Origin: Octopus vulgaris
Taxonomy: Eukaryota
Reading direction: 5' to 3'
Length of the DNA stretch: 64,000 nt
Assembly: GCA_951406725.2 (NCBI GenBank)
Contig: OX597814.1
Location: forward strand, 61,380,001 to 61,444,000
Under the pieces are notes generated by a model. It was not told the DNA's origin and ran no database searches. It worked only from the letters and a program-made list of their open reading frames with translations. Positions 1,861 through 58,023 of the stretch are shown here, piece by piece; the first letter of the stretch is position 1, and every line of letters starts with the position of its first letter. Position numbers and translations under genes: made by a program.

Positions 1861-2976
1861 AAGTAAAAGGAAGAGCAATGCTAAGAAAAAACTTCAGTAA
1901 ATAGCAAAGTATGTTTGAAGAGGTTACAGTTACACCATCTTATGTAGTAGCTGCATGGATGATGGAGGGATGAAGCATGATACAGTGTAGGTCAAAAGAA
2001 CCTGAACACTAATGTAGCTCAGTACCACTGGAAGGAACAAAAATGCTAGAAAGTGCCAAAATCATTATGATTTCCAATCAACAGCTGATGAATAGAGAAT
2101 GCTGCAATGCAAACTGTATGTTAGTAAGTTTTGTTTCTAATTTGGGCACAAGGCCAGCACATTTTGAGAGGAGGCTTTTTAGTTGATATTATCGAACTCA
2201 TTACTTGAGTGATATTTTATTTTTACTCAGCTACGGTGTTATATTAGCTATCAATAATGATATTCCCTCTGATTTTTCTGATTTTCAAACCTATTTATCT
2301 AATGTTTATTTATCGACAATGCCGTCCCCAGTCAAATTCCCTCACACCGCTTATTGTCACGTGTCCCTTGACCTCTCTCTCTCTATGTCCCCCCTTCCCA
2401 TAACCATCATCGCCATGGTTCTCTATGCCCCCCCCCCCTTCCCAAAACCATCATCGCCATACATAAAAGAGCGATCGCATTTATCGTTAACCCCACTCGC
2501 TTCAAAATATCTAAAGAATACGCACAGATCATGAATGGCTAAAAGTTAAGTGAATCGTCCAACCTCGCTACGACTACCTTCTTTCTTGCACTTATTCCTA
2601 TTCTTCAATTTCCATCTCATTGTATTGTCCCTCATTCTTTCAGTATTCCCTCATTACCCTGTCTAGCTCAAACATTTTTTTTTTTCGTTTAGACTTGTCT
2701 CCAGGTTCATAGCCACTCTGATTTTTCAATTTTTTGTTTAGTATTGTCTCCCGATTCATACAAACCCATTGCTAGCTCATACGATTAACAGAACCTCTTT
2801 ACTCAGCTACGGTGCACCCGCCCTCCCACCCCCACCACGCATGCCGGAAGTTCCTATTCTCTGCCATTCCGGGGTTGCTTCCCATGAAGACTGCAAATGC
2901 TCTCACCATCCCTACCCCTAGTCTCGACCTATGTAAGGTAATGTTCATACAGTGCAAAATATGAAAGGCTAGCGTT

Positions 2977-4137
2977 ATGCAGGTTGTACTGAAGGCTACT
3001 TTACTACTTCATTTCTTGCACATGAATTCTGCCAAATGCGAGCTTTCTTTTCAGGTACACGAAGCTACTGTCCACCGTCCCAGGGTCTCTAGAGCCCATG
3101 CCTTCCACACCCTCAGGGTTGGCACCCTCAACGTTGGCACTCTGAAAGGTAGGTCTGGTGAGATAGTCGAGATGCTTGAACGGAGATGTGTGGATATATG
3201 TTGCATGCAAGAAATAAGGTGGAGAGGAGGTTCAGCTAGGTTCCTCACAGGCAAGGAACGCAGGTACAAGATTTTCTGGGCAGGGAACACTGACGGGGTT
3301 GGTGGCGTGGGTATACTTATCGCTGAGAAATGGGTAGATAAAGTAATTGAGGTAATCAGAGTATGTGACAGAATACTTAAGATTAGATTAGTGCTTCATC
3401 ATAGTTTAGCAACCATTATATCAGCCTATGCTCCTCAGTCGGGGCTACCCGATGGACAGAAAGACCGATTCTATGACACTCTACTGCAGACTACCTCATT
3501 GACGAACGACAGAGACCTTATCTTTGTGGCTGATGACTTCAATGGTCACGTTGGACGACATGCTGGGGGCTTCCATGGCGTACATGGAGGCTATGGCTAT
3601 GGCTCCCGCAACGAGGAGGGAACCAGGCTGCTGGAGTTCTGCGATGCAAATAATCTTATGATTTGCAACACTAACTTCAGGAAACCTACCAGCCACCTAG
3701 TCACTTACCAATCGGGCCAACATACCAGCCAAATTGACTACATCCTTACAAGGCAAAGGGAGAGATGGCTGCTTATAAATGCCAAAACCTTCCCAGGTGA
3801 AGAATGTACCCCACAACATAGACTGGTAGTTAGTGACTTTAGGATCAGGACTAGGAGGACAACCAGAAGACGACAAATATGGAGAAGAAGGATCTGGAAG
3901 CTTAAAGATCCTGCAAATGGACAGAGATTTAGGGACATATTACTTGAAGCCTCTGACGAAGTAGAAGGGGATAGAGCATCACAGGGGGTAGAAGACAGCT
4001 GGACGTTTCTAAGGGACAACCTGCTGAGAGCCACTGACCAGATCTGTGGCTGGTGCAAAGTCCCCTCTCGACCTAGAATAACGTGGTGGTGGAACAATAT
4101 TGTAGACAGGGCTATTAGAGAAAAGAGACAGGCTTGA
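2977..4137 (+). pseudogene. RTE ORF, APE endonuclease part
   Basis: GTLNV, DICCMQEIRW, GVGILI, SAYAP, DDFNGH (GDFN mutated), QIDYIL, PQHRLV motifs; stop at the deletion junction. Confidence 0.9.
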
Positions 4138-4173
4138 AAGCAACTAATTAGAGAGAGAGTTAGTTTAGATGAG

Positions 4174-5508
4174 ATGCAGTTTGGGTTTGTGCCAGGGAAA
4201 AGTACTACTGATGCTATATTCCTGGTAAGGCAGCTGCAGGAGAAATACCTAGCCAAAGATAAGCCCCTGTACCTGGCTTTTGTTGACATGGAGAAAGCCT
4301 TCGACAGGGTCCCCCGATCCCTTATCTGGTGGGCAATGAGAAAACTAGGGATAGATGAATGGTTAGTGAGAGCTGTGCGGGCCATGTATAGGGACGCCGC
4401 TAGTAGGGTGAGGGTTGGAAATGAGTACAGTGAAGAATTCCGGGTAGAGGTAGGGGTCCACCAAGGCTCAGTACTCAGCCCCCTCCTATTTATCATAGTC
4501 CTCCAGGCAATAACGGAGGAATTCAAGACAGGATGCCCTTGGGAGCTCCTCTATGCTGATGACCTTGCTCTAATTGCTGAGTCGCTATCAGAACTGGAGG
4601 AGAAGTTTCAGGTGTGGAAACAAGGATTAGAATCGAAGGGCCTCAGAGTCAATCTAGCTAAAACCAAAGTCGTAATCAGTAGGAAGGTAGACAAATCACA
4701 AACACCTTCAGGTAGATGGCCCTGCTCGATCTGTAGAAAAGGTGTAGGTAGAAACTCTATAAGATGCACCAAGTGTAAGCTATGGACACATAAGAGATGC
4801 AGCAATGTCAAAGGAAGGCTAACTAGGAAGATGGTTTTTGTATGTGGCAGATGCTCAGGAACAATAAACACTGAAAATGCTCTGAGACCAACTTCCGTCA
4901 CTTTCCAGGGAGAAAAACTAGAAATAGTTGATAGTTTCCGTTACCTAGGTGACCAAGTCAGCAGCGGGGGCGGGTGTGCTGAAAGTGTAACTGCTAGAGT
5001 AAGAATAGCTTGGGCAAAGTTCAGAGAGCTCTTACCTCTGCTGGTGACAAAAGGCCTCTCGCACAGAGTGAAAGGCAGACTGTATGATGCGTGTGTACGA
5101 ACAGCCATGCTACATGGCAGTGAAACATGGGCCGTGACTGCTGAGGATATGCGTAAGCTCGCTAGAAATGAAGCCAGTATGCTCCGATGGATGTGTAATG
5201 CCGGTACTCACACTCGGCAGAGTGTAAGTACCTTGAGAGAAAAGCTGGACCTAAGAAGCATCAGTTGTGGTGTGCAGGAGAGACGTTTGCGCTGGTATGG
5301 TCATGTGGCGAGAATGGATGAAGATAGTTGTGTGAAAAAGTGCCACACCCTAGCGGTTGAGGGAACCTGTGGAAGAGGCAGACCCAGGAAAACCTGGGAC
5401 GAGGTGGTGAAGCACGACCTTCGAACTTTAGGTCTCACTGAGGAAATGACTAGAGACCGAGACCTCTGGAAGTGTGCTGTGCGCGAGAAGACCCGGCAGG
5501 ACAAGTGA
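4174..5508 (+). pseudogene. RTE ORF, reverse transcriptase part with inserted C4HC3 finger
   Basis: QFGF, AFVDMEKAFD, GVHQGSVLSPLLF, LYADD, FRYLG, RLRWYGHV, RGRPRKTW; RT N-terminus missing. Confidence 0.92.
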
Positions 5509-37959: not shown

Positions 37960-39410
37960 ACAGAAAAACAAAACATGAAAACAAGTGTGTAAACAACAAA
38001 CAGATGTATTAGTTTAATGCTTGGGAAGTGAGAAAGTTTTTTCTGTTTCAAGCCTACATTCTTCGACAGAAAATAACACAGAAATAAACAGGGAGAGAAA
38101 ATAGGAAAAGGCTTAGTGGCTAGCAATCTATCATGTCGAATGCCAGACAGAGGGGTCACTCAGGAAAGCTAGGAAGAAGGGGAGATAATAAAGTAGTGGT
38201 GATCCCAAAATTAAGGTGCACGTGCGTGTGGAAGGGGGCTGGTGACATTGACTTGTGCGTGTGTGCATTTGTAGGTATGTGGATGATGGTGTAGGTGCTA
38301 GGAAGTGGTCAGTGCTTGTGTGGGTGCTGGGAAGTAGTCAGTGCTACTGTGTGCAGTGTGGTGTGGAGGAAGCAAGAGTGGGATCTAAGGGATGGGATGT
38401 ATAGGGATGATAGGGTTGGAATATGTAGGGGTGGGGTAACAAGGGAGAAGGTGGGTAGGAGTGAAGAGAGGAAATAGGTGCCAGAGCAAGAGAGGAGAGG
38501 TGGGTGGGAGGAGGAGAGAGAAGGAGGATTAGATGAAGAGGGGAGGAGAGTTGAGCCCATGTGGAACAAAGGAGCGAAGAGAGAAGATTAATCCCTGTTC
38601 ATGCAAAGACGGCAGTCCGGATGGCTCCTGTGCAAGGACAATCCAAATACAGACAGGTGTTGTAAAGAGTGACCGGTAGAGCAGAAATGGTACAAGACCG
38701 GGGTGTCGTTGCTGAGTCAGATGTCTCGGAGGTGTTCCGCAAACTGGTCAGCCAAGCAGTGTCCTGTTTAACCGATGTATAGCAAAGGACAGTCAGAGCA
38801 GGAGATGCATTAGATGACATTGCTAGAAGTGCAGGTGAAGGAGTCAGTGATATGATAGGGTCGATGATGGGTGCCTGTGAGGAGGGTAGTGTTGGAGAAG
38901 TAAGGGCAAGTGCAGTAGCGTGGGTGGGAGCAAGGGAACGAGCTGGGTTGGGAGATTGGGTGAGGGAAGAAGCTGTCGACCAAGAGGTCTCGTAGGTTGT
39001 AGGCTCGTTCGAAGGAGGAGAGGCGTGGTTAGGAAAGACGTGTGAAGTGGAGGGGTTGGACTGGAGTCACTGGAAGGCTCGGAAAATGGTGCATTAGAGA
39101 AGTGGGGTGGTAGGTGAGGGGAAATGGGAGCCGGGTGAGTGGGGAGAGAGCAGATGCACAGTCCACGGAATGTGCTCTGGCAAAGGCGGAGGGGATATCC
39201 ATGTAGGATGAAGTGGCAAGCCATAAGTTGAGACTGATTCCCAAAGTCATGGTTGTCACTGCAGAGCCTGCGTAGACAGAGGAATTGGGAATAGGTGATG
39301 GAGAGCTTGGTGTGTTTAGGGTGGGAGAAAGAGAAATTGAGGTATGAGTGTGAGTCTGTGTTTGTAGTGGATGGAGGGGAGGCGACTGAGGTGTTGGAAA
39401 TAGTGCAGAA
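37960..39410 (-). mobile_element. Penelope-like element (PLE), 5'-truncated and degenerate
   Basis: RT thumb TDSHSYLNFSFSHPKHTKLSITYSQFLCLRRLCS..HGYP, then GIY-YIG remnant FTCTSSNVI*CISCSDCPLLYIG*TG..FAEHLRDI with stops and frameshifts; pyrimidine-rich 3' region. Confidence 0.88.
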
Positions 39411-39673
39411 GTGGAGAACATGTTTGGCATCAATCAAAAAACCAAAGTGAATACAAATTTGGAGAGAGAATCTTGAACGTTCAGGCATGGGTTATAGAGT
39501 TATACTCATTTACTTATTGAAATGTGACAATTGCATAAATGTAAAAAAACCATATTGGTTACAAGGGAACTATATATATTATGTATGTATATATTCACTC
39601 TTATGTCAGTTTTTCCATACAAGCATATATTAGGTGAATATATTATTGAAGCAATGTTTTACCTCTAAATTCT

Positions 39674-51768: not shown

Positions 51769-51912
<144 letters not shown>

Positions 51913-53682: not shown

Positions 53683-54833
53683 ATTCATCATAGTCCTCCA
53701 GGCAATAATAGAGGAATTCAAAACAGGCTGTTGATGACCTTGCTCTTATAGCTAAGTCACTACCAGAACTAGAGAAGAAGTTAACCTAGCAAAAACCAAA
53801 GTCTTAGTAAGTAGGAAGGCAGACAAATCACATATCCCTGCAGGTAGATGGCCCTGCTCGATCTGTAGAAAAGGCGTAGGTAGAAACTCCATAAGATGTA
53901 CTCAGTGTAAGCTATGGACACATATGAGGTGCAGCAATATCAAAGGAAAGTTAACCGGGAAGATAGTTTTGTGTGGCAGATGCACAGGGGCAATAAACAC
54001 TGAAGATGTGCAGAAAACAGTTTCCATCACATGTCACGGGGGAAAAACTAGAAGTAGTTGATTGCTTCCATTACCTAGGTGACCAAGTCAGTCGCAGGGG
54101 TGGATGCCCTGAGCGCATAGCTGCTAGAATAAGAATAGCAGGGTAAAGTTCAGAGAGCTCCTACCCCTGCTGGTAACAAAGGGCCTCTCGCTCAGAATGA
54201 AAGGTAGACTGTATGATGCCTTACTACATGGCAGTGAAACATGGGCTTTGACTGCTGAGGACATGCGTAGGCTTGAAAGAAATGAAGCTATTGTTCTCTG
54301 CTGGATGTGTAATGTCAGTGTGCATGCACGACTGAAAGAAAAGTTGCACATAAGCATTAGATGGAGTGTGCAACACAGACAACTGCACTGGTATAGTCAT
54401 GTGTTGCGTATGGATGATGACAGCTGTGTGAAGAAGTGTGATACCCTAATAGTGGAGGGAACCTGTGGAAAAGGTAAACCCAGGAAGACCTGGGATGAGG
54501 TGATGAAGCACGACCTTCGAATGTTGGGCCTTACAGAGGCAATGACAAGCAACCAAGACCTTTGGAGATATGCTGTTCTTGAGAAAATCTGGCAAGCCAA
54601 GTGAGATCATAGTTGTGGCCGATGCCAGTGCTACCTGACTGGCACCCGTACTGGTGGCATATAAAGAGCATCTACTACACTCTCGAAGTGGTTGGCAATA
54701 GGTAGGGCATCCAGCTGTAGAAACCTTGCCAAATCAGATTGGAGCCTGGTGCAGCCTCCTGGCTTGCCAGTCCTCAATCAAACCATCTAACCCATGCCAG
54801 CATAGAAAGCAGACGTTAAACAATAACGATGAT
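53683..54833 (+). mobile_element. 5'-truncated RTE LINE (same family as 2222-6077) in Khc intron 3
   Basis: Colinear with 4490-6060 including the C4HC3 finger, HGSETW and GKPRKTW, with frameshifts; shared 3' tail. Confidence 0.92.
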
Positions 54834-55765
54834 GTGTGTGTGTATAATTATATATTTGTGTGTGTGTATGTATATTATATGCAGTCTTGATAGATATAGT
54901 TATTTAAAAAGGAATCTAAGGAAGCAGAAGATGCACTGTTTCATATTCAAACTTGGAATTGGACTACTGATGGATTTAAATACACGCTTTTCTTTCTCCA
55001 CTTAGACCTTTTCTTCAGTATTCCTATTTTCATCCTTTAGCTCCACTTTCACCTCAATTTTTCCCACCACCACACATTTGCCCACCTCTCTCCCTCCTTT
55101 CATTTCTCTTTTCTTCTCCACCCTACATATATAAGCTCAAATAGTCTTGCAGTCCCTGTCAAGTGCAGTCAGTTTCTCAGACATGCAAGGTGTACAACTC
55201 TGCTGTCTTTCATTTATTTCCTTCCTGTCATCTTTACTCTCAAGCCTATGCCAAAACCATTAGATACTCCGCTCACTACAAAACACTCTTCCTTTTGTTT
55301 TGGACATCCAACTGTAAAAAAAACATACCAAAGTAGACAACATTTAGTGTAGTCTTCTGACTTGCCAGCTCTTACCAAACTGCCCAGCACATCATGCCAG
55401 TATGGAAAACGGACATTAAATGATGATAGACATACACACATACATGTGTATGTATGGCTATCTATGTGATAAACATACGTAAATATGTGTTTAGGCTCCT
55501 TTCACTTTCGTCTGCACAGCTATATGTATCGTATTTTGCCAAGTGTTATTAGAATCTATAGTAGAATAAGAAAAAAGTTCTGTAAAGTGGTTGCCATTAA
55601 GAAAGCTATCCAGTATCAGAAACCATGCCAAAACAGATATTGGAGCTCACTGCTATCTTCCATTGCATCCTGTCAAGCTATCCAACCCATGCCAGCATGA
55701 AAGAAGGATATTAAATGAATATGACGTGTATGTGTATATTGGGTGAGTGGATAGATATGTGTGTA

Positions 55766-55790
<25 letters not shown>

Positions 55791-55801
<11 letters not shown>

Positions 55802-56130
55802 CAGTTTTAGAGACAGAACCACCTTCAACTCAATCAACACTGAAAGATATATAAGAGGTAGGGGTAGTGAAAATTATTGAGGAATCCAGACCTGAAGATT
55901 GGGAGTATGTCAACCCGATTAAGTATTGAAACTAGATACCTGTTATCTAATCAATACTGGCGTACTTTCATGAAATACGTGTAGTCTTATAAATGGAAAA
56001 TACGGGATTCAGAATAGATATAGTTAGTATAAGATTTAATATTTTACATTTTATGGAGTGGTCGGGTATAAAATCATTCAGTGTTGATTGAGTTGAAGGT
56101 GGTTCTCTCTCTAAAACTACTTTTATATAT
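55791..56130. mobile_element. TIR-bounded ~340-bp element in (TA)n with internal hammerhead motif
   Basis: 42-bp inverted repeats 55803-55844 and 56077-56118 (1 mismatch), extending into TA tracts. Confidence 0.85.
55882..56010 (+). ncRNA. Type-I minimal hammerhead ribozyme motif (sense to Khc)
   Basis: agac-CTGAAGA (55892-55898), 13-bp helix II, GAAA-T-ACGT-G-TA (55972-55983), gtct; palindromic ACGT loop; U.U at the helix II base. Confidence 0.6.
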
Positions 56131-56940
56131 ACGAATTAAACATTTAGAGATGTTCATTGTAGTACATCTAATTTGAATGTCTTTTTCCAGTGTACTCGGA
56201 AGTAATATTCCCTAATAATTATAAAATAATGTGTGTGTGTTTCAGAATGTGTTGACCACTCATTATAGTTCATGTATTTTTTCATTACTTTTCCCACAAA
56301 GTGACCCCACTGCAAATAGCTATTTAGATAAAAGAAAAACATTATTACAGCTGCAATTTTTAGTCTAATTTGCATTGCCTGCATTTGTTGTTTGCATGCT
56401 CATAGAAGTTATAAATATTTATGCACATCACATCTACTGAAAAACATAAAGCATATTTTTATCTTAGTAATTAATGTATGTTTGTTTGTGTGTGTTTTGT
56501 ATAGGTAAGAAGTTCATTTCCCACCCACGTGGTTTCACATTATCCCATTGTGTCTCTCCTTCAGCAAGTGCCTACTCTAATCCTGGGCTAACCAAAGCCT
56601 TGTAAGTGGATTTGTTGGAAACTGAAAGAAACCCTTTGTATTCATTTGGTCTATTTCTGTTTTCCATCCTAGCATGGTTTAGATGTATCTATTACTGAGG
56701 CATTGTTTTACAGCTGGATCTCCTTCTTACTGCTCGCCCTTATAACCCTTACCTGATTTTCAAATAAGGGATCTCTTATTTTACATGTTTTCAAAAGCTT
56801 AAAGCAAACAGATAACTTACTGTCAGAAGTGACAGCAACAAGAGTGCTTGTTTCAAGTGACTTTCCTAGAGCAGAAATAAAAACAGATACACTGATGCAC
56901 ACACATAAAAAGATAGATAGATAGATATTGATACTCAGTA

Positions 56941-57150
56941 AGGTGGTGAGCTGGCAGAAATGTTAGCATGCCAGGCGAAATGCTTAACAATATTTCGACT
57001 GTCTTATGTTCTGAGTTCAAATTCCGTCATGGTCAACTTTGCCTTTCGTCCTTTCAGGGTTGATAAATTAAGTACCAGTTGCGTACTGGGGTCGATCTAA
57101 TCGACTGGCCCTTTCCCCAAAAATTTTAGGCTTCATACCTAGAACAGAAA
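56941..57150 (+). mobile_element. SINE family A copy with 18-bp TSD
   Basis: AGATATTG(A/G)TACTCAGTA at 56923-56940 and 57151-57168. Confidence 0.88.
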
Positions 57151-57918
57151 AGATATTGGTACTCAGTATTCATCAACATTTCTATTTAATGTTGTCTACT
57201 GTTGTGCATCTTCTGTTCCTCCTCGCACATGTTTTCTCAGTTGATCTGTCAGTATAGAATAACTATTTGGAAATCAAATTTGCAAAGTTTTGCAAATATA
57301 GATACATAAATTGCATCGATATGTATTGTGTCTTCATTGATTGTAGATTCCATTGGGAACTGTTTAGCTTGGAATGAGGATTGATCTGACCAATTTTAAT
57401 ATGTAATTATTTATCAGTATTCACTCAAGTTACTCTCCAAAGTTGCTGAGCATAAGTACTGGAAGATTATTTTTTTTAAAGTCATCAACCATATCTTGTT
57501 ATGTCAATGAGTTGTACCTTGCATATGTTAGCATTTTTATAGATAGTTATCTCCTTATTTACATTCTTAGTAGTTTGGAAAGAAGGAAGCAGATCATGAT
57601 GAACTTTCAAGTAATAATGAAACTAGTTAGATCAGCCTTCATTGTAAATTGTTTAAAAGGCCTTCGTGAGGCCTAATTTCACAGCCACATTAAATCCATA
57701 TGTACAGGGGCCTCTATATTTTTTACTTTGCCGAATGGATATTTCTGTAATAAAGACTCTATTTCTAGTATTTCAATTAAGTATTCAAATACAAAGTTCC
57801 TGCCAACTGCAGTTGGCTTATTAAAAATAGCTGTGAAAAAGTGGTTTATATGTTTAAACAAATTTGATTTTCTTTTGAATTTTATCAATTTATTATGTTC
57901 TTTCTTTGAAATTGTTAG

Positions 57919-58023
57919 GGTGTCCTTGGTAAACCCTCAATGCACGGTATCATTCCACGTATTGTGCAAGATATCTTTAATTACATTTATGGGATGGATG
58001 AGAACTTGGAATTTCATATCAAG
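57919..58023 (+). CDS. Khc: Kinesin-1 heavy chain exon 4 (aa 97-131)
   Basis: [35 protein letters not shown]; TAG acceptor, GTAAGA donor; 105 nt. Confidence 0.97.

Follow-up and report, generated by a model that had tools for sequence, protein, structure and literature searches.

The inverted arms and their surroundings

The window analyzed here is a stretch of 64,000 nucleotides of Octopus vulgaris DNA (contig OX597814.1, positions 61,380,001 to 61,444,000 of the forward strand). The element under study lies in an intron between an exon that ends in GKTHTME near 51840 and an exon that contains GIIPRIV near 57960. Judged by kinesin motifs, these flanking exons (near 51800 with the P-loop, near 57960 with GIIPRIV) are taken to encode kinesin-1 (Khc). 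The predicted hammerhead is on the sense strand of this kinesin-1 intron, in agreement with the earlier note. The inverted repeats of 42 bp described in that note are present as well, with 41 out of 42 positions identical between 55803-55844 and 56077-56118. When the arms are extended to 55796-55848 and 56073-56125, the identity is 49/53. The window contains the 28-mer core of the arms twice, while none of 100 shuffles contains it, and the 340-nt strand folds with a z-score of -10.8. The repeats had also been called terminal, which they are not, as the same repeat family goes on for approximately 100 bases to the right of the right arm (56131 to ~56225). Their proposed setting in (TA)n is correct for the left arm only: a long host (TA)n run is found there, while TATATATA on the right side is internal element sequence. 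A target-site duplication of the window insertion was sought, and none is readable in the (TA)n microsatellite. The features of the insertion are collected in Table 1.

Table 1. Features of the intronic insertion, in window coordinates.
Feature	Position	Strand	Remarks
Host (TA)n microsatellite target	55770..55797	.	Target-site duplication not discernible
Short inverted arm (the left "TIR")	55796..55848	-	5'-truncated head-to-head copy of the element 3' end; ends at terminus 1 in host (TA)n
Inversion junction	55845..55848	.	Two arms overlapping by 1-4 nt; read from sequence; scored as 2 nt in the census of arms
Forward arm	55845..56131	+	5'-truncated 3' UTR/pseudo-LTR of a probable Hydra-type Penelope-like element, up to terminus 1
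Predicted type I hammerhead	55882..56010	+	Core and helix pattern
Distal helix I of predicted hammerhead	55882-55887/56005-56010	+	GAATCC/GGATTC
Helix I of predicted hammerhead	55888-55891/55984-55987	+	AGAC/GTCT
Core of predicted hammerhead	55892-55898	+	CTGAAGA
Helix II of predicted hammerhead	55900-55970	+	13 bp extended by two further stems; 73-nt insert at 55899-55971
GAAA of predicted hammerhead	55972-55975	+	Followed by T-ACGT-G (short helix III, loop ACGT)
Minority T (C in most of the family)	55976	+	Helix III C-G to U-G; self-complementary CACGTG broken
Predicted cut of hammerhead	after A55983	+	
Tail of the Penelope-like element	56132..56225	+	~100 nt; ends at terminus 2 after TTCCCTAAT (56208-56216); repeat-family matches

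As RNA, both arms (55796-55848 and 56073-56125) would form a near-perfect duplex of ~53 bp within the kinesin intron, which is a possible substrate for A-to-I editing in a cephalopod. The contig of sequencing run X13, which was looked at for an empty site, ends at 56231. At position 56497, runs X4, X6 and X13 have contigs that are 15 letters longer than the window sequence. Two other regions of the window also resemble retroelements. On the plus strand, positions 2965-5505 contain two long open frames of 390 and 456 amino acids, which we presume to be a LINE-type endonuclease and reverse transcriptase (RT) of an RTE-like element. On the minus strand, a fragment with SHSYLNFSFSHPKHTK...YSQFL is present at 38847-39491; to our eye it resembles the RT thumb of another clade of Penelope-like elements (PLEs).

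Copies, termini and the linked reading frame

With 55797-56125 as query, the genome of the window itself yielded 413 candidates, 40 of which were scored. The whole query is covered by the window only. All 39 other scored places start at query position 45-67, just past the left arm, and match up to position ~329 at 90-93%. The collection of genome-wide copies suggested in the earlier note thus yielded no scored copy besides the window in which the left arm is joined to the interior (0/39). An adjoining inverted arm does occur in 11 of these 39 places, each time with its own start point. A 24-mer over the left junction (at most 2 mismatches) has two genome matches, namely the window and a locus without family similarity; the 29-mer arm core has 225 (at most 1 mismatch). 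The arms are consequently not the ends of a MITE, since the junction is unique, the arm length is variable (see below) and the repeat continues past the right arm. In 10 out of 30 loci including the window (9/29 others), the forward arm runs into the tail, and with the tail as sole query all 40 scored matches are at 92-100%. The summed contig depth of four public runs remains at repeat level through 56217 and is at single-copy level after ~56230. Upstream, copies could be followed to points over 1.5 kb past the initial query. L005:661 was at one point suspected to be a fixed 5' boundary, a view that was rejected, as other copies extend more than 1.5 kb beyond it. One family copy (L010; G000:C4:24360168-24363447) lies, together with host flank, in a tandem duplication of 1434 bp.

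A census of the fetched loci comprises 92 distinct arms. Their 5' starts are scattered, but their 3' ends are not: 47/92 end at terminus 1 (window 56131, in TA), 39/92 at terminus 2 (the tail end, ~56225) and 6/92 in between. Nineteen head-to-head pairs were found, with inverted arms of 57-556 nt and junctions ranging from -17 to +18 nt (overlaps or gaps). In 17 of these 19 two-armed insertions each terminus is used by one arm, i.e., one arm stops short of the tail and its partner runs to the tail end. The remaining two combine a partial tail with a full tail or, in the case of L025, were scored as terminus 1 twice, though one arm has a short tail stub. The mixed pairing has a one-sided binomial p of 7e-5 (17/18), to be read with the fact that 11 of the 19 pairs come from the tail query, which fixes one tailed arm; among the pairs found without this query, seven out of eight are mixed (p = 0.035, one-sided binomial). 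Motifs preceding both termini recur in families B and C and in a younger sister family (the window belongs to family A), and the sister family uses both termini (L130; L135, L138). In full-length copies of the sister family, the tail-equivalent sequence runs into the start of the open reading frame (ORF), which indicates that the tail represents 5' UTR sequence belonging to the next tandem unit. Terminus 2 is preceded by a conserved TTCCCTAAT in the window and at equivalent positions elsewhere. As we read it, this motif contains one reverse-complement TTAGGG unit, which may be due to chance or may echo the telomere-complementary ends of endonuclease-minus PLEs.

The copies are thus 5'-truncated, with an inverted head-to-head copy and a one-sided tail. 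Inverted 5'-truncated copies and one-sided tails of 30-40 bp are known for PLEs (PMC8557442 and PMC3846280, both in excerpt). With the general PLE architecture, as excerpted from PMC3846280 and PMC11167929, the family shares head-to-head arms, a tail on one arm only that consists of the sequence following the pseudo-LTR (pLTR), and AT-rich targets. Its tail is different in being about three times the published length and, judged from the sister family, in lying within the 5' UTR and ending before the ORF start.

The 10-kb stretches around copies contain a decayed ORF, in which an RT (GAPDSA, YRDD) is followed by a GIY-YIG-type domain. The autonomous partner, for which either a transposase or a PLE-type RT had been anticipated, is hence found by following the long copies, and they lead into an RT-GIY-YIG ORF. 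In L092, the ORF, the 3' UTR and the same hammerhead are found in one locus, broken up by other insertions. All inspected ORF copies of family A (including L091, L092 and L098) have stops or frameshifts, and the window copy has lost its ORF. Open frames of 821-841 amino acids are present in the younger sister family, and its 841-residue ORF of L131 has 68% identity to family copy L091 over residues 93-478. The structure model of L131 (pLDDT 80.9, 22 sequences) has telomerase RTs as its eight best structure matches, so that the linked single ORF probably encodes a telomerase-like RT as PLEs do. A GIY-YIG endonuclease after the RT is suggested by the motif VVYKC...YIG...R...H; the structure search of the L131 model did not confirm the GIY-YIG fold. 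At its cut-off, Pfam returned neither an RT nor a GIY-YIG family for any of seven proteins (three family fragments and four long ORFs), and a sequence search of the PDB gave 0 matches. [quoted passage not shown]

The motifs of the sister ORF include CTCRDKSNC (CxCX5C), CYLC (CxxC) and CRH (CxH), without CCHH and with the endonuclease at the C-terminus, and the ORF pieces of family A carry CNCRDKNNC, CILC and CKH. SDKT (DKT for DKG), YRDD and YIG are also present, and RWK occurs as KWK, a conservative change. The targets are (TA)n, as seen in the 3' flanks of 30 loci and at tail ends. The hallmarks of the Hydra clade are DKT, RWK, CxCX5C, the lack of CCHH, CxxC plus CxH, and (TA)n targets (PMC8557442, in excerpt). 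Membership of this clade is therefore the most likely assignment; it is based on these motifs and on visible likeness to supplement proteins, the tree of RTs holding no named Hydra reference. The Naiad clade has an N-terminal GIY-YIG domain and lacks a canonical hammerhead. It was first considered from motifs and was dropped, because here the endonuclease is C-terminal and a hammerhead is present. With the Hydra clade, including Hydra-1_Obim of Octopus bimaculoides (PMC8557442, in excerpt), the family has in common the order of RT and GIY-YIG, the DKT, CxCX5C, CxxC and CxH motifs without CCHH, and the (TA)n targets. It further shares the position of a type I hammerhead close to the 3' end, in which the base of helix II often has U.U, and the inverted 5'-truncated copy, which is noted there for Penelope-13_HM. 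On the other hand, RWK is replaced by KWK, Asn-rich inserts are present, the 3' UTR is longer, the element exceeds the typical length of less than 3 kb, and its tail measures ~100 nt. Judged by its protein and hammerhead sequences, the family is distinct from Hydra-1_Obim; it is a new member of the Hydra type, one whose hammerhead has a long stem and whose tail is long. A literature search of mostly open-access scope, which leaves Repbase and Dfam outside, found no paper that describes this family or a MITE bearing a hammerhead. Penelope-like families have been counted in Octopus vulgaris, and the main text of that study, in excerpt, mentions neither hammerheads nor Hydra (PMC13282606).

Besides family A, two young PLE families of Hydra type were observed, which have Asn-rich inserts and open frames of ~820-960 amino acids (L129-L135 and L139-L141). 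Some of their copies form near-identical tandem or inverted arrays, with 97-100% identity between copies. The first young family has a compact hammerhead (helix II of 16-17 nt) upstream of the ORF; in the second one, the patterns used found no hammerhead.

The hammerhead and its relatives

The core, the three helices, the GAAA and the predicted cut after 55983 are all located where the earlier note had placed them. It is the only hammerhead in 54297-57625 and was recognized from the pattern of its core and helices rather than through a covariance-model match; an Rfam scan of 54000-58000 yielded no hammerhead at E ≤ 1 and two weak mir-297 matches to TA repeats. That other copies might lack the core, named earlier as a finding that would speak against a ribozyme, is not the case, since CTGANGA is intact in 48 out of 57 family A copies. 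As far as can be judged from sequence, a type I hammerhead thus appears to reside in the pLTR, as expected for a PLE.

For comparison, 49 hammerheads were aligned, 29 of the 57 from family A and 20 of the 25 from family B. In this alignment 92% of the cells are paired, compared to 32-46% in slid controls, although the rows are related, which limits the test. The base of helix II is paired in 98%, with one double change from G-U to C-G that represents a single event between the two families. Core columns are conserved at 0.99 and other columns at 0.95, in rows that were chosen by similarity. From one lineage to another, helix I goes from AGAC/GTCT to CCAC/GTGG, and the helix III hexamer, judged from single copies, keeps its self-complementarity (CACGTG, CGCGCG, CGTACG or CAATTG). 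The insert forming helix II measures 73, 78, 76, 71 and 66 nt in lineages A to E, respectively, and 16 nt in the young sister, and folding z-scores range from -1.7 to -5.1. Besides the lineage of the window copy, at least four have a long helix II of differing sequence (L136, L149, L177, L184, L199 and L144). In a tree that is resolved only in part, several RT branches carry long helices II and the youngest one carries the short form; the long helix II may be ancestral in these elements. An accumulation of 5' breakpoints around the predicted cut was looked for and is unsupported, with four observed in an 11-nt interval versus 2.25 expected.

Two traits of the window copy had been interpreted as attenuation, namely U.U at the base of helix II and U-G in helix III. 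Neither reading is supported as a trait of the family. In 26 published rows of Hydra hammerheads, stem II has 3-7 bp with loops of 3-10 nt, and U.U occurs at its base in 14 (PMC8557442, in excerpt). The U.U is therefore ordinary, and it is the long stem that is unusual. The core search in the same source, as excerpted, allowed a spacer of 7-17 nt; helix II of lineages A to E takes up 66-78 nt. As for helix III, position 55976 is C in 14760/15050, 5665/5696, 1077/1086 and 852/862 of the family depth in four runs (~98-99%), such that the U-G pair represents decay in the window copy. Among 57 copies, the hexamer reads CACGTG in 26 and TACGTG in three, and is unparsed in nine. The minimal hammerheads of metazoan PLEs (PMC4209133, in excerpt) are likewise of type I, with a 4-bp helix I, a 2-bp helix III with a palindromic loop, an extra base before helix II and a predicted dimer-dependent cleavage. 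They differ in helix II, which here comprises 13 bp plus two more stems. The nearest long-stem precedent seen consists of the Selaginella PLE-X rows of ~53 nt, which are flagged as deviant (PMC8557442, in excerpt).

Origin of the insertion and predicted effect on the host transcript

Taken together, we are highly confident that this stretch is a decayed two-armed PLE insertion, most likely of the Hydra clade, in which a forward 3' end of 385 nt with hammerhead and tail stands head-to-head with a 53-nt inverted copy. Of the two origins offered in the earlier note, the PLE-derived element with inverted ends mimicking TIRs is the one borne out, by the RT-GIY-YIG partner, the variable arms and the unique left junction. 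The locus itself is likely an ordinary, inactive intronic insertion. It could have arisen through nicks that the endonuclease of the element made in both strands of an AT-rich target, the (TA)n run of the Khc intron. From each nick as primer, the element RNA would then have been reverse-transcribed, starting at one of two internal sites that lie ~100 nt from each other. Of the two cDNAs, one may have stopped after ~53 nt and the other after ~385 nt, and both may have been joined at a microhomology of 1-4 nt. An Anolis Poseidon element indeed uses two internal RT start sites in vitro and has both strands nicked (PMC11167929, in excerpt). A rival account of the inversion step is the antisense self-priming model proposed for PLE inversions (PMC3846280, in excerpt). 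The hammerhead is the usual pLTR ribozyme of the parent element, predicted to act as a dimer via the palindromic helix III or with the help of a protein. The lone window copy, with its palindrome broken, is predicted to leave the Khc pre-mRNA uncut.

The best surviving alternative, albeit very unlikely, accepts the same PLE origin and supposes that the host has retained the hammerhead, which would cut the Khc pre-mRNA at a low, regulated rate. Its sense orientation in the kinesin intron and its intact core would fit. So would one contig each from the runs of two other organisms, which bridges the tail end into the same flank by a borderline overlap, a weak sign that the insertion predates the split of these organisms. 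Against it, the active fold of the monomer exceeds the best fold by 8.9 kcal/mol in a 161-nt context and by 12.1 kcal/mol in contexts of 340-601 nt, compared to 0.5-6.1 kcal/mol in other natural copies, and fold prediction gives helix I a probability of ~0 in the window copy. With the palindrome broken, the helix III self-duplex has -6.5 kcal/mol versus -10.3 kcal/mol for a CACGTG copy. This energy by itself is no proof of inactivity, because that of the young sister is similarly weak (-5.8 to -6.4 kcal/mol). The window copy also has eight differences from the column majority over 131 nt, at the high end of the family span of 2-11. Finally, monomers of minimal PLE hammerheads did not cut (PMC4209133, in excerpt), and cleavage by a PLE hammerhead of this type needed the protein of the element (PMC11167929, in excerpt). 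A look through the RNA runs on record found none that contains the stretch. Given the costly active fold of the monomer, the broken palindrome and these published precedents, cleavage of the Khc pre-mRNA by the window copy is predicted to be negligible.

Slightly less probable again is a non-autonomous, retrozyme-like repeat that derives from a PLE pLTR and moves as a short unit mobilized in trans. The copies are for the most part short and non-coding, and animal retrozymes have been proposed to be non-autonomous PLE derivatives (bioRxiv 10.64898/2026.07.22.740005, in excerpt). However, a tandem fixed monomer would be expected, and neither a fixed short unit nor a hammerhead array is seen: the 5' ends lie at scattered points all the way from the 3' end into the ORF, and 54297-57625 contains a single hammerhead. 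A MITE with TIRs of 42-53 bp that captured a hammerhead and was spread by a DNA transposase, the other origin offered earlier, is barely credible: the shortness (~330 bp), the lack of coding sequence, the near-perfect inverted arms and the TA-rich site are MITE-like, but the two-armed unit is single-copy with a unique left junction, its repeats are neither terminal (the family extends 100 nt beyond the right arm) nor of fixed length (57-556 nt) nor copied as a unit, and long copies lead to an RT ORF.

As a single locus, this dead retroelement stump in an intron is of little weight; it is nonetheless a clear case of PLE inversions imitating MITEs in the annotation of transposable elements. A broader proposal, to which we give slightly less than even confidence, is that a cephalopod Hydra-type branch has a working hammerhead, whose helix II of 66-78 nt is missed by Rfam and the usual descriptors, and that its two-armed insertions follow a rule of one arm per start site. 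If so, some PLEs reported without a hammerhead may hide long-stem ones, and the one-arm rule would be evidence, at the level of the genome, for priming of both target strands from two different internal RNA sites per event. A long-helix-II hammerhead that covaries in five lineages would widen the descriptors used in hammerhead searches, and the two-terminus pairing (17/19), together with the young intact sister families that this genome also contains, lends itself to a natural test of the way in which the inverted ends of PLEs are formed.
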